Position numbers and translations under genes: made by a program. The notes beneath the pieces were generated by a model. That model ran no database searches, was not told the origin of the DNA, and was given only the letters and a program-made list of their open reading frames with translations. From a virus: DNA of 64,000 nucleotides. Positions 51,401-56,627 of the stretch are shown here, piece after piece. The stretch is from IMG/VR virus record IMGVR_UViG_3300045912_000129, positions 1,653 through 65,652 of that record. One strand, written 5' to 3'. How positions within the stretch are numbered: the first letter of the stretch is position 1; the number at the start of each line of letters is the position of its first letter.

Positions 51401-51915
51401 TTTACACAAAATTTAAATAAGAAATCAAAAGCTAAATGTCCTTTCTCTTTGATGGCTTTTTTAGTCTTAATCATTAAATCTTTACATTCTTGATTAGGTG
51501 TACAAAAACCATCTTCAGTAGTAATTAAATATTCACTTTTTCTAAGTTTAGTCATACTATTATAAATACTAGTATGTGTTTTATTAAGTTTATTTGCAAT
51601 GTCAATTAATTTAGAATCTTTGTTTCTATAAATCAAAGTAAAATCTAAATCAAGAGTCATCATATATGCCATTAGTTCTAATGGAGCGGGTGATATTTTC
51701 ATATCAACAATTCTGTTATCTACTTTTTTCCATCTTATAATGTTATTTAATTCTAAATAAATTTTATAAAAAGTAAATTCATCTATGCTTGTTAAAGGTT
51801 CTGTTTCTATGATTAGATTGTCAATAATTTCTGTTGGTTTATATTTACCAAACCTAGCTATTTTACAATCTTTAACCATAGATTCTCTTTTATCAAACTT
51901 AATTCCTTTTTCCAT
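51397..51915 (-). CDS. Winged-helix/HTH DNA-binding protein
   Basis: LIDIANKLNKTHTSIYNSMTKLRKSEYL. First gene of the late arm. Confidence 0.5.
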   Translation of the reverse strand: MEKGIKFDKRESMVKDCKIARFGKYKPTEIIDNLIIETEPLTSIDEFTFYKIYLELNNIIRWKKVDNRIVDMKISPAPLELMAYMMTLDLDFTLIYRNKDSKLIDIANKLNKTHTSIYNSMTKLRKSEYLITTEDGFCTPNQECKDLMIKTKKAIKEKGHLAFDFLFKFCVK

Positions 51916-52187
51916 ATTAGTTAATTTAAATAATTAGTTAGTTACTCTGGTTAATTATAACTACAAAGTTATGTTAAACTCTTTCCAAAAAATTATATAA
52001 AAATTTTAAATAGTCAAAACCTACCCCCTCCTGTTATTCAAAATTATTTTATCCCCCCCTACCCTTATCTATATGGGTTTATTTCTTTAAAAAACAGGCC
52101 TAATTTCAATTTTAAATTCAAAGTAATATAAATATACTACTCAATGATTAGAGTGTCTTAAATCGAAAGCTAGAGGGTTTAAAAGGC

Positions 52188-52253
52188 AAATTGAATTTTA
52201 GTTTAAGGGGAGTGATATTTAAAATTGAATTTTAGTTTAAAAGGAGTGATATT
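52188..52253 (+). repeat. Tandem 32-bp direct repeat (2 copies, 30/32 identical)
   Basis: AAATTGAATTTTAGTTTAAGGGGAGTGATATT (52188-52219) and AAATTGAATTTTAGTTTAAAAGGAGTGATATT (52222-52253). Confidence 0.85.
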
Positions 52254-52339
52254 ACCTCCTATAACCACCCCCCTTTAGTTTTGGGAGGATTCCTCCCCCG
52301 GTAGGCATATTGCCTATCGGAAACTTTAAAAACTAAAAA

Positions 52340-52804
52340 ATGAAAATCAATTATTCAAAAGTCCTGGCGGAGCTCCGCCAGGCAGTCCAGACCGGCTCAG
52401 GGAGCGGATGGATTTTATTGACAGAGGACTCACTAAAGGTCCTCATGAATAGCCTCGGCGTGACCTCCGCCGCCGAGCTATTAAGCAAACAAGCGGAGTT
52501 CGTCACGGTACCATGCTATTTCGTACTTGAAACCCCTCCTTCAGAAGGCAAGGGGGCAAAGTACACCAGCCTTGCAAACCCTTTCCAAGGGGTCGAGGGT
52601 GGGCTAACCACCATCGACTGGAGCAATAAGATCTCTACTCCATACGCCTCCGGAGTAATCCGGAAGTGTACCAGAGAGGGTATTGTTTTTTGGTTAGCAG
52701 AAAAGCCGACCGGAAAATACGAAACTGGCTTTTACTACCGTGTCGCCCGCAAGGGCGAATCCAAGGCCTCTGTTAAACAGGGCCTCACGAAAAAACCTGT
52801 ATAA
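52340..52804 (+). CDS. Hypothetical early protein
   Basis: 154 aa with an A-rich leader; first gene on the + arm. Confidence 0.6.
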   Translation: MKINYSKVLAELRQAVQTGSGSGWILLTEDSLKVLMNSLGVTSAAELLSKQAEFVTVPCYFVLETPPSEGKGAKYTSLANPFQGVEGGLTTIDWSNKISTPYASGVIRKCTREGIVFWLAEKPTGKYETGFYYRVARKGESKASVKQGLTKKPV

Positions 52805-52961
52805 GGTTTCCCTAGTTAAATAGGGTTTTTACGCCTATATATACTGACCAAATATAGGCAATATACAGGTCCCCGCGCTATGGGTTAATAGCACGAAGAT
52901 CAACCCCATTATTATAATGGGGTTTCTTTTTATAAACCATTTTGCAACGTAGTTAGCATTT

Positions 52962-53596
52962 GGGGGCAGAGAAAAGGTATAGCTTAGGCTATATTCGCGC
53001 ATCTGTCCCGGCAAGAAGACCTGTCGAGCGCGAACAGGCTATCCTACTCTAGTCGGGAAGTAGGACGAACAGAACCGACCTCCACTTCGGTGTGGAGAAA
53101 TTTCCCTTCGGGGAGCCCTTGTACAGTGGGTGAGGTCAACCTCAACTGTACGATGAACCGCCATGGTGACATGGTACTTAACTCGGTAGTGGGAGTTAAG
53201 CTAAGGGTTGCAAGAAGTTACTCTACGGAGTAATGAGCACTCACTACGGCAGTACCCTACGGGGTGAGGTGTCCTAACAGGCCCTCTCATGAACTGCCCA
53301 CACAGACCCAGTGACGACTGGTAATCTGTGGGATGACACACCGCTGACGAGCGGGAATCGCCTAGTTGACTAGGCGTGGGTTGATCACCCTAACAATCCG
53401 TTCCTACACGTTATGTAGGTTGGTATATCTCGTCGTTGGGAGTATACCGTAAAAAGAAAGAAGCCTGTGGCACGCAGGTGAGCACTCAACGATGACCTCA
53501 CGTCTTACTAAAAATCAAGTAAGAGTGTAGGAAAAAGGAGGAGCGGAGTGGCTTTTCCTAGGATCAATGTGGTTACCACATAAACGATCCAGTGCA
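52962..53596 (+). ncRNA. Candidate large structured ncRNA 1 (about 640 nt), upstream of tRNA-Glu
   Basis: No ORF in the track. More than 15 consecutive hairpins, including C(UUCG)G at 53085 and 53106 and C(UACG)G at 53223 and 53257. Confidence 0.6.
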
Positions 53597-53606
53597 AAAA
53601 TTTTAA

Positions 53607-53678
53607 AGCCCATTCGTCTATCGGTTAGGACGTCAGATTTTCATTCTGAAAAGAGGAGTTCGATTCTCCTATGGGCTG
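53607..53678 (+). tRNA. trnE: tRNA-Glu(UUC), no encoded CCA
   Basis: Acceptor AGCCCAT/ATGGGCT, anticodon arm TCAGA-TT TTC AT-TCTGA, T-arm AGGAG-TTCGATT-CTCCT. Confidence 0.92.
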
Positions 53679-53706
53679 CAAAGCTACTTGCATTTGCAGT
53701 AGCCTA

Positions 53707-53895
53707 ACCTCCCCTACAGCTGCTATGCCGTGTATTGGCTCTAAAGCACTTAGGGGAGGGATTTAATTTTATTCTCTCTTATACTGCAATGCCCTGGCCA
53801 TTTGGAGCAGCGGCAAGACAGGTAAGGAGAATAAAATATCAACAAACCTCCCCTACAGTTGCTTGGGTTCAAGCCGTGAAGCACTTAGGGGAGGA
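53707..53895 (+). repeat. Two copies of a CCTCCCCTA...TAGGGGAGG irregular hairpin
   Basis: Copies at about 53707-53760 and 53847-53895 share ACCTCCCCTACAGYTGCT...AAGCACTTAGGGGAGG. Confidence 0.75.
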
Positions 53896-54152
53896 TTTTA
53901 ATATTAAAACTCCGTTGGTCTATCGGAGTATAAAACATAGACTCCCGCGTTATTCCTGCGGGTATCCCCTCTGGGGATAATAGCTCCCTCATAGAGGGTA
54001 TATCTGACATTTTGCCGTGGTGTCAGATGAATTAGAATGCGGCACCTCGCTAGCATACCGAGGTATATAAATAGTATGCTTATTTTTTAATTCCCCTTAC
54101 GGGGCGTTACCCTTGACGAGACAAGGCGTGACCCTGGAAGGGGTTTTGAATC

Positions 54153-54666: not shown

Positions 54667-54892
54667 CATAAGCCTCAACTCCGCGTCATTCCGGAGTATA
54701 AATATAGAATGACAACCACGCAACCTCCCGTGGTATACAAATAGGAGGCAGAAGAAATGACCTCGCTGACATACCGAGGTATATAAATAGTATGTTATTT
54801 TTTGCAGTGTAGTTGCACTGCCACCATAAAGTAGTAAACGGGGTGTAAGCCGTTATAACTACATATTGTTCACCTTCCATCCCCGAACTATT

Positions 54893-55507
54893 ATGGAAGG
54901 GAAGAAAAAGGATCGCGAGATCCGTCACTCAGCCCGTAAAATACACGGGTTGAAGAGTCTTCCTTGTCCGCCGATAGTTCGGTGGATGGGAGCATTTGGC
55001 ACTTTTAATGGGGAAGAAAGTGCCAAATGGGAGGCCTCCGACACACGAATGAAGTGTGCGGAGGTACTACTGCCCAATGGCAATGGGTCTTTTATGTCCA
55101 AATGCGGACAGAGATCCATTGGTATTGGTCTCTTAGTAGATCAAGCCAGAACACCATTGTTCAGAGCGTACAACTACGACGCTTGGACGAACAATGGTAA
55201 AAAGGGTTCTGTACCCTTTGGCGACTCTACTAAGTTGTACAGCATGTACAAAACCCACGAAAACTTAGTTTATGTAACTAAGTATCGTGAGGTGGCGGCC
55301 ATGCTACAACTCCACCATAACTACAACAGTTATTTGTGGACAGAGGCCACCATTGGAGACGGGAAGCGAGCACCCGTCTACAAGGCAGTAGTTTGCGATA
55401 CTGCTCGCAGCTGGGCAGTGCGCCAGCAAGCCATAAAAATGGCTGCAGCACTGAACGTTGAGGTCATCTGGGTAAACGACCTCAAGGCTATGAACTTCCC
55501 CACATAG
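54893..55507 (+). CDS. Hypothetical early protein (204 aa)
   Basis: ATG at 54893, followed by a terminator. Confidence 0.65.
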   Translation: MEGKKKDREIRHSARKIHGLKSLPCPPIVRWMGAFGTFNGEESAKWEASDTRMKCAEVLLPNGNGSFMSKCGQRSIGIGLLVDQARTPLFRAYNYDAWTNNGKKGSVPFGDSTKLYSMYKTHENLVYVTKYREVAAMLQLHHNYNSYLWTEATIGDGKRAPVYKAVVCDTARSWAVRQQAIKMAAALNVEVIWVNDLKAMNFPT

Positions 55508-55567
55508 CTCCTAGCAGACGGCACCTCTCTGGTTTTGCAGAAGCTGCCGGAAAAGAAACAAAAAAAA

Positions 55568-55597
55568 AGGAGGTAGACCAGACTACCTCCTATTTTT
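55568..55597 (+). terminator. Intrinsic terminator (possibly bidirectional)
   Basis: A-run, AGGAGGTAG-ACCAGA-CTACCTCCT, then ATTTTT. Confidence 0.8.
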
Positions 55598-55638
55598 CAA
55601 CTAAAATTTTCTTTGAAAGAGAGAAGAAAATTTTTTAA

Positions 55639-56175
55639 CGGGTGAGGGGTGAAATTCCCTGTGGCTAACGACCCGGCTACTATATACATGTTGACATGTA
55701 ATTATAGTTAGCGAACAATGTAGCCTATGGTACTCTCCCAATAAAAGGGTAGTCTTATAAGACTATAGGGAAACCGAGAGTACGTTTACAATAATGACGA
55801 TGATGCAGCTTTACCTGCTAGAAACATCTAGTTATATGTAAACGAGGTGAGTCCTCCAAGTGCGGCACCAGGCTGAGTGAGGGGATGCTGGTGCATTGTT
55901 ACTATTTCCTGCGTAGTAACAATTATTAAAGGTGATAGTGGTACAATCACCTTGCAGTGTTACAAAGAGAGATACTAGGGAGTGGCGTCCCGAAAAGATA
56001 CCTGGCAAGTATCAGTATCGAGAGTAACAAACGGGAATATCGTACCAACGAGGAACACAGGTTCCATAGTCTGCCCGTCCGATAAAGTCCCAATCCCAAA
56101 GGTAATGGGGATACTTATTGGAGAAAGAAGAGCCGTGCCACGCGGTAAAGTATGTGGGAGAGTAAACTCTAAATC
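55639..56175 (+). ncRNA. Candidate large structured ncRNA 2 (about 540 nt)
   Basis: Nested stems (GGCTAC/GTAGCC, GTACTCTC/GAGAGTAC, CGTTTACA/TGTAAACG, GCACCAG/CTGGTGC, TTGTTACTA/TAGTAACAA, AAGGTGAT/ATCACCTT). No credible ORF. Confidence 0.6.
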
Positions 56176-56627
56176 ATAACCAGCTGAAGATAGATACTTT
56201 ATATTTATCTCCAGCTGGTTATATTAAACCATTTGCAGTGTAGTTAGCATTGAAACATAAAAAGTAAAGGCGTTGATCTTACGCCTTAATTGATGCCTTA
56301 ATTGGCTAGAGAAGAGATCAAACCCCTGGTTATACTGTTCGCCTCCGAAAGCGCTGCTTCTGACTTGGCAACATGTATAAAGAATCCGACAGGGCATATC
56401 ACCGTTCTTAGTAGAGCTTCTTGGGTGATAACGATTCTAATATTAATTTAACTCCCGAAATGAAACCAAGCGTTCCTTTTTGAAAGAAAAAGAAAACGCT
56501 TGGTTTCTATCAAACCCTTTGCAGTGTAGTTAGCATTAACCGCGAGAGGCTATCCGCGGTATACAAATAGATGAGCCATTAATTGTTAATAAACCCTCCC
56601 GCTAGCATATCGGGAGTAATAAATAAT

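Follow-up and report, generated by a model that had tools for sequence, protein, structure and literature searches.

The stretch of DNA analysed here (the window) comprises 64 kb out of a 66.2-kb IMG/VR virus record with an estimated completeness of 43%. Its left arm is encoded on the minus strand at 25–30% GC and carries the genes for the large terminase, the portal, the major head protein and giant virion proteins. The terminase (TerL) is approximately 27% identical to those of crAss-like phages and, judged from its sequence, the source phage is a distant, deep-branching member of this group. Around position 52200 the GC content rises to 40–50% and the gene orientation changes to the plus strand. 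The junction (51915–52340) is divergent, with the minus-strand late arm (25% GC) on one side and the plus-strand early arm (45% GC) on the other. The independent Logan contig L002 crosses the same junction with the same GC jump, which shows that the window contig is non-chimeric. Tandem 32-nt direct repeats, 94% identical to each other, are located in the junction at 52188–52219 and 52222–52253; this region could serve as an origin or in regulation.

Within the early arm, a tract of approximately 640 nt (52962–53596, plus strand) lies between a promoter-like motif and a tRNA-Glu gene. The coordinates in the initial annotation were correct: the motif occupies 52941–52958, the stem strand GGGGGCAGA starts at 52963, and the tract ends, as described, just before the tRNA, which begins 10 nt further on. 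The tract had also been called free of open reading frames, and the longest one within it encodes 47 aa under table 11. The ORF-free zone in full, 52805–54152, is larger than the tract. The locus has the following features, L003 being a homologous metagenome contig:

52902–52930, plus strand: intrinsic-terminator-like hairpin with a 10-bp stem AACCCCATTATTATAATGGGGTT, then TCTTTTT; it closes the 154-aa gene at 52340–52804
52941–52958, plus strand: promoter-like motif TTTGCAACGTAGTTAGCA, the first of 8–9 copies in the right arm
54801 (variant), 56232, 56518, 56882, 59725, 60780, 62051 and 63471, plus strand: the motif copies that follow the one at 52941
52963–53010, plus strand: 5′ hairpin, GGGGGCAGA/TCTGTCCC around GGTATAGC/GCTATATT, from the MFE fold and alifold
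53011–53116, plus strand: variable peripheral hairpins, 58–67% identity, indels of 2, 1, 3 and 10 nt
53117–53435, plus strand: predicted multi-helix core domain of 8–9 hairpins, including three in C-UACG-G context
53152–53340, plus strand: most conserved block, 189 nt, 5 differences from L003 (97.4% identity), 4 of which keep pairing
53390–53449, plus strand: variable segment, 75% identity, 13 gap columns
53448–53462, plus strand: A-rich single-stranded linker, identical in L003
53463–53596, plus strand: 3′ hairpins CCTGTG.., TCTTACT/AGTAAGA, AGGAAAA/TTTTCCT and GGATC..GATCC, from the folds and the L003 alignment
53607–53679, plus strand: tRNA-Glu (UUC), CCA not encoded, found by ARAGORN and with 57.8 bits by the Rfam tRNA model

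The motif (TTTGCAGTGTAGTTAGCA) is present in eight exact copies and one variant, all on the plus strand, intergenic and confined to the right arm. Exact matches to TTTGCANYGTARYTAGC numbered eight between 52941 and 63487, against 0.29 expected by chance. Its position after a terminator and before genes suggests that the motif is a promoter, and it directly precedes the tract in the homologous contigs L003, L004 and L005 as well. An exact 25-nt copy also stands, inverted, at the end of contig L002 (L002:2031–2055). No terminator-like site was found on the plus strand between 52925 and 54216, and the 5′ end of the tRNA is the presumed RNase P site, where cleavage would generate the 3′ terminus of the RNA from the tract. 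Just past the tRNA-Glu, a hairpin of approximately 50 nt (CCTCCCCTACAG...CACTTAGGGGAGG) occurs in two copies, 53708–53759 and 53847–53894, the second of which contains a T-arm-like GGGTTCAAGCC.

The initial annotation had proposed a search for homologues, and this search was productive within a narrow range. The 154-aa gene upstream of the tract has three homologues, all on short metagenome or Logan contigs. Homologues of the tract were found in only two other lineages, again on short metagenome contigs. One lineage is represented by L003 (1164 nt), which aligns with window positions 52436–53572, and by L004, identical to L003 over 462 columns. The other is the partial L005, in which the motif is followed by 100 nt from the 5′ end of the tract. 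In L005 a 144-aa gene with an MJ1673 domain (L005:625–1059) follows the terminator that closes the 154-aa gene and precedes the motif with the tract; motif and tract have remained joined despite this extra gene, which indicates that both travel as one module. The more distant relative L002 contained no tract within 330 nt of its homologous gene. Further searches did not extend this distribution. GenBank phages, compared by DNA, yielded a match to the tRNA only; IMG/VR, queried with the neighbouring protein, the motif and two core 16–17-mers, yielded nothing or chance matches; among JGI metagenome contigs a core 20-mer had no match and the motif 18-mer had 21 single chance matches. Exact-protein look-ups gave no additional contigs, and the literature on non-coding RNAs of hot-spring crAss-like phages held nothing relevant.

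The comparison with L003 bears directly on the coding capacity of the tract. The indels between both sequences measure 1, 2, 3+1 (re-registering), 10, 13 and 10 nt. None of them is in frame, they break the longest plus-strand ORF of the tract, and they fall at hairpins, which are lengthened, shortened, inserted or replaced as a whole. An SD-like AAGGAGG together with an 11-codon mini-ORF (53540–53590) was considered as a candidate and rejected: both are deleted in L003 and thus not conserved. Recoding of TGA as W or TAA as Q opened no frame covering the tract, while TAG read as Q opened a single 170-aa frame on the minus strand (52829–53341), which we take as a chance occurrence. That the tract codes after all, for small proteins or in an alternative code, or is a decayed early-gene pseudogene, would be in line with this frame and with the several real genes of ~50 aa in the arm; yet the frame requires three recoded TAGs, runs opposite to every gene in the arm and is interrupted by the indels of L003, every indel is out of frame, and both arms read normally in table 11. 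A pseudogene, moreover, would not exceed its intact neighbour in conservation. We therefore consider a coding origin highly improbable.

The conservation of the tract is unevenly distributed. The core is 97–98% identical between the window and L003, unpaired bases included, and the segment 53450–53509 reaches 97%, whereas the hairpins between the conserved blocks are at 58–75%. Windows of 60 nt over the upstream terminator (52902–52930) show 90–92% identity with L003. The adjacent 154-aa gene is 63–83% identical, with its substitutions distributed 25/19/56 over the three codon positions. The sequence constraint on the tract is thus stronger than that on its coding neighbour. In principle, the 97% core could also be a patch of recent recombination, and L005 shows a mosaic pattern.

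The plus strand of the tract folded with a minimum free energy of −254.5 kcal/mol (z=−6.7), 14 kcal/mol below the minus strand at −240.6 kcal/mol (z=−6.2). Local hairpins of at least 5 bp numbered 19, in comparison to 13.1±2.1 in 300 dinucleotide shuffles, and 15 had at least 6 bp against 6.7±2.0 in the shuffles. The description of the tract as hairpin-packed therefore holds in absolute terms and fails as a distinguishing trait, since the whole arm is equally or more densely packed. The C-UNCG-G element was found five times (53085, 53106, 53223, 53244 and 53257), with a shuffle mean of 0.69 and none of 2000 shuffles reaching five; it is absent from the minus strand, and the rest of the arm (11 kb) contains only four. 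This count agrees with the at least four UNCG tetraloops reported before. By eye, three of the sites (53106, 53223 and 53257) cap clean stems, while the site at 53085 is part of a hexaloop and the one at 53244 has a poor closing stem. The two stems that had been named as examples, GGGGGCAGA/TCTGTCCC with one G·U pair and CGCCTAG/CTAGGCG, are real. The string CCCACAGA was misread: the actual letters are CCCACACAGA, and the predicted stem is CACAGA/TCTGTG with 6 bp. Approximately 12% of the pairs in the tract are G·U, according to a hand count of the alifold pair table.

Several helices changed between the lineages in a way that maintains pairing. In the 5′ hairpin, the inner stem carries a compensatory U-A to C-G exchange plus a 1-nt insertion in L003 and L005, and the outer stem a G·U to A-U change in L005. 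Among the peripheral hairpins (53011–53116), CTCCAC/GTGGAG became CTCTGC/GCAGAG by two compensatory pairs, the hairpin CCC-UUCG-GGG was swapped for another one, ACCTGA-TTAG-TCAGGT, and in L003 the TCCTACT stem pairs in a shifted register. The five differences in the 189-nt block consist of two U-A to U-G changes, a double change from C-G to U-A and one unpaired C to G. The variable segment of L003 contains a 13-nt GCC-GGAA-GGC hairpin inserted after window base 53401, and the apex of the third 3′ hairpin is 10 nt shorter in L003. When the MFE structure of the window (194 pairs) was imposed on L003, 161 pairs were unchanged, 7 changed on one side, 7 were double compensatory and 16 broken, so that L003 keeps 175 of the 191 testable pairs, compared to 69–82 if the partners were slid by 1–3 nt. 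Many of the broken pairs are located in one mis-aligned indel hairpin or close a loop, and the two-sequence alifold, with 173 pairs and 6 double changes, has none broken. In total, 6–7 double and 4–7 single pair-keeping changes between the two lineages are spread over at least five helices. Compensatory changes are therefore present, in a sample of two full lineages and one 100-nt fragment (L003 and L004 being identical) that places covariation beyond a statistical (R-scape) test.

Most predicted pairs belong to local hairpins and the long-range helices are invariant. The helix predicted to close the core (53152–53159/53422–53432) was obtained both by folding the single sequence and by the two-sequence alifold, whereas the four-row alifold closes the core differently, by GCCC/GGGU (~53117–53120 with ~53377–53380). 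Being invariant in the homologues, the closing helix has the status of a prediction only. A search for loop-loop pairing returned weak, invariant candidates only, for example 53186–53190 with 53243–53247.

The prevalence of local pairs would be expected if the tract were a string of independent small elements, such as protein-binding or decoy hairpins, among them CRISPR-repeat mimics, RNA anti-CRISPRs or sites for an RNA-binding protein of the phage, or a precursor that is cut into several small RNAs. Two of its hairpins share a U-GACG-A loop (53312 and 53345), and TGACGA-type loops recur in hairpins at 54114, 54458 and 56913; and the segment GTTGCAAG-hairpin-GAGCAC (53207–53240) has what we take to be the look of a CRISPR repeat. 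As a CRISPR-repeat mimic, however, this segment was rejected: across 185,579 species genomes, an exact 17-mer of the repeat-like unit gave only single chance matches and never an array. The hairpins are, moreover, all different, no part of the tract has a paralogue in the window, and the 189-nt block is contiguously conserved across junctions within a predicted enclosing helix, which suggests one domain. A covariance model built from this block (R1) found no second copy in the window, in L002 or in the further Logan contig L172. We regard a string of independent elements as unlikely. The TGACGA sequence occurs nine times on the plus strand of the right arm, five times in a hairpin loop, and these loops could be a shared protein-binding site.

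To place the tract among described RNAs, Rfam 15 was searched with cmscan, at the gathering score over the whole window and with lax filters (E≤10) over the 1.5 kb from 52600 to 54100. The former returned only the two tRNAs of the window, and the latter nothing credible, with no GOLLD, ROOL, OLE, introns, RNase P, tmRNA, 6S or SRP. ARAGORN detected no tmRNA in default mode, and its relaxed search for decayed tRNAs and tmRNA gave noise only. The statement in the initial annotation that the tract is not assignable to GOLLD or ROOL withstood the cmscan comparison which it had itself suggested: the tract fails both covariance models and is a member of neither family. A divergent member of a known family (GOLLD, ROOL, a group I or II intron, RNase P or tmRNA) which the Rfam models miss would share with GOLLD and ROOL the size and the neighbouring tRNA; but none of these families came up in the lax search of 1.5 kb, even with a threshold of E≤10. 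The tract does not split a gene and has no intron-type ORF in its vicinity, and we judge such a relationship very unlikely. A second ORF-free tract of the arm (55639–56175), unrelated to the first, also had no Rfam match at E≤5.

ROOL and GOLLD are large structured non-coding RNAs of phages and prophages, often encoded beside tRNAs, with GOLLD often exceeding 800 nt; their function is unknown (10.1101/2024.12.08.627333). The tract resembles ROOL (RF03087) and GOLLD (RF01998) in being a multi-helix phage element of ~640 nt directly upstream of a tRNA-Glu, and, as is usual for ROOL, it is located on phage DNA near a tRNA gene, the contig encoding TerL, portal and major capsid protein (MCP). It differs from ROOL in having no match to the RF03087 model and from GOLLD in having none to RF01998, the universally conserved 3′ domain included. 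ROOL and GOLLD are represented in hundreds of lineages and the tract in two and a half, and, unlike that comparison set, the tract has no demonstrable pseudoknots or self-complementary kissing loops. ROOL and GOLLD assemble into cages of 8 (the homo-octameric ROOL nanocage) or 14 copies, and GOLLD expression rises in lytic growth; no observation made here points to cages formed by the tract.

Other systems offer partial parallels. The tRNA region of phage T4 encodes two stable RNAs (species 1 and 2, or RNA C and D), which are co-transcribed with tRNAs and have no known function; they are released by tRNA-processing enzymes and, with ~120–140 nt, are tRNA-sized. They represent the closest precedent for the processing logic proposed below, although the tract is approximately five times their length and contains a core of several helices. 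The bacterial OLE, raiA and HEARO/omega RNAs, whose functions are unknown or understood in part, are likewise long, conserved, multi-helix RNAs known from comparative analysis. The tract differs from them in its lack of an Rfam match, in the absence of an IscB/TnpB-type neighbour as in HEARO and in its location in a phage early operon. Racr RNA anti-CRISPRs are phage non-coding RNAs which mimic CRISPR repeats. The tract shares with them a non-coding phage RNA, an own promoter (putative in the tract) and hairpins that could mimic host RNAs, but has no repeated unit, and its repeat-like segment has no array counterpart in the genome collection.

The folding of the tract has to be seen against that of the arm as a whole. 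Each 200-nt window between 52200 and 64000 had a z-score between −1.2 and −10.9 relative to dinucleotide shuffles, coding genes included, whereas left-arm windows averaged about −1. The tract's own 200-nt windows (z=−2.9, −2.7 and −7.7) rank as average or lower within the arm. An instructive case is the gene ndk, whose product has a genuine NDK domain (Pfam, E=4.7e-18) that aligns collinearly with the profile; the protein had no match in the genome collection. The ndk mRNA is a chain of 10–13-bp hairpins (z=−13.3). Its stems contain 20 G·U against 3 A·C pairs, which indicates that the structure was selected in the plus-strand RNA. In comparison to synonymous-codon shuffles, which keep protein and codon usage fixed, native right-arm mRNAs were 7–14 SD more stable (ndk −9.6, orf154 −7.0, orf184 −14.2), versus −2.8 for the left-arm portal gene. 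Homologues on L002, L003 and L005 share the trait at a GC content of ~50% (z=−6.5 to −8.8), while left-arm genes on L002 had z=−1.2 at 28% GC. In a nearest-neighbour model at 75 °C, more than 55% of the bases in the tract and in right-arm RNAs were paired, compared to 21% in a left-arm mRNA. We know of no prior description of an early arm whose synonymous sites are under selection for extreme folding of the mRNA. As a speculation, such folding may provide resistance to single-strand RNases, to RNA-targeting defence or to heat.

The right arm also contains a repeated element, at 54044–54087 and approximately 30 further sites up to 63536, in which a hairpin loop pairs with a segment immediately behind a conserved TATATAAATAG linker. 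The predicted geometry is that of an H-type pseudoknot, and the stems covary among the copies. Two pseudoknot patterns gave 0 matches and 120 chance matches, respectively, in the genome collection.

Hairpin packing is thus a property of the entire arm, real genes included, and the stem count is not diagnostic of a non-coding RNA. As hairpin density and z-score are no higher in the tract than in coding genes, part of its structure may reflect the arm-wide pressure. Taken further, the tract may be a generic structured spacer or leader in an arm in which all transcripts are hairpin-packed, with no role other than to carry the promoter-proximal RNA and to present the tRNA-Glu for processing. The conservation of the trait in L002, L003 and L005, its persistence at 75 °C, the absence of the tract from L002 and its narrow distribution are compatible with such a spacer. 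What sets the tract apart from the rest of the arm is the combination of no reading frame, short stems of 5–8 bp (10–13 bp in the genes), concentrated UNCG caps, with the UNCG enrichment found in the tract only, and a high sequence conservation. A spacer should maintain pairing, not loops and junctions, but the core is conserved in its unpaired bases also, far above the neighbouring gene.

A positional analogue is relevant to the same question. The 213-aa ORF with a TTG start at 54866–55507, further downstream in the arm, matches a database product of 173 aa across 81% of its own length, with 100% identity. Its true length is probably shorter than 213 aa, and the non-coding stretch upstream consequently longer than the ORF list implies. 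No Pfam or PHROG family matched this gene. Its only other homologue is encoded on L172 (Logan SRR29257461), with 42% amino acid identity, and upstream of that homologue lies a 940-nt ORF-free stretch (L172:1352–2373; z=−8.9 and −10.4), followed by a weak tRNA match at 2294–2373 with 31 bits. Rfam in E-value mode returned tRNAs only for 54800–56600 and for L172. BLAST, nhmmer and the covariance model R1 all returned no similarity between the L172 stretch and the tract, and L172 shares nothing with the window beyond the 173/213-aa gene. A non-homologous ORF-free tract before a weak tRNA match can be counted in favour of a structured spacer; L172 fits a fast-diverging RNA before a tRNA and generic structured filler equally well. 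On balance, a spacer without a further role appears possible and somewhat doubtful, and of the alternatives considered here it deserves the most attention.

The tract is non-coding, its plus-strand RNA structure is conserved with compensation between the lineages, its core exceeds the adjacent gene in conservation, and it matches no known family. The absence of an Rfam match together with a conserved non-coding structure make a conserved non-coding RNA, and a candidate new family, the most likely interpretation. Specifically, we propose, with confidence that is about evenly balanced, a conserved structured non-coding RNA of ~645 nt which starts after the motif, is co-transcribed with the tRNA-Glu, is released by RNase P and has its function in the core. 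An early transcription unit would begin with the tract as its non-coding 5′ portion, the order being terminator of the previous gene, promoter-like motif, ~645 nt of folded RNA and tRNA-Glu. Cleavage by the host RNase P at 53606/53607 would leave a discrete and stable RNA of ~645 nt. The conserved core (~53117–53435) would be the functional part, with the peripheral hairpins free to evolve fast. Most probably the RNA would then act on its own, early in infection, with the conserved core serving as a platform or scaffold to which a host or phage protein, or further copies of the RNA, would bind. Of these steps, promoter function, co-transcription, RNase P release and action in trans are those we infer from the arrangement of the locus.

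The initial annotation had suggested a new giant non-coding RNA class. The non-coding nature, the conserved plus-strand structure and the lack of an Rfam match uphold this suggestion in part, and the class itself remains a candidate. Accordingly worded, the tract is a candidate for a new family among the large, ornate RNAs that phages encode beside tRNAs, found so far in one narrow lineage. A bolder and distinctly tentative extension, which we think rather improbable, would regard it as the founding member of a new large-RNA class in thermophile-associated crAss-like phages, produced first in infection along with the tRNA-Glu, a self-standing machine or assembly comparable to ROOL and GOLLD. 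It would also be the non-coding extreme of a strategy not described so far, in which the complete early arm with its genes is hyper-structured, for example against single-strand-specific RNases or RNA-guided defence.

The folding of the whole arm hints at an RNA-level survival or counter-defence strategy of this phage. The hyper-structured genes may be more surprising than the tract itself, and any explanation of the tract should cover them as well. With motif, RNA and tRNA at the head of the early arm, the locus forms a compact construct for testing. If the proposed reading is true, this RNA of a deep-branching crAss-like phage, unrelated to GOLLD and ROOL and joined to a tRNA precursor, would widen the small group of such large phage RNAs.
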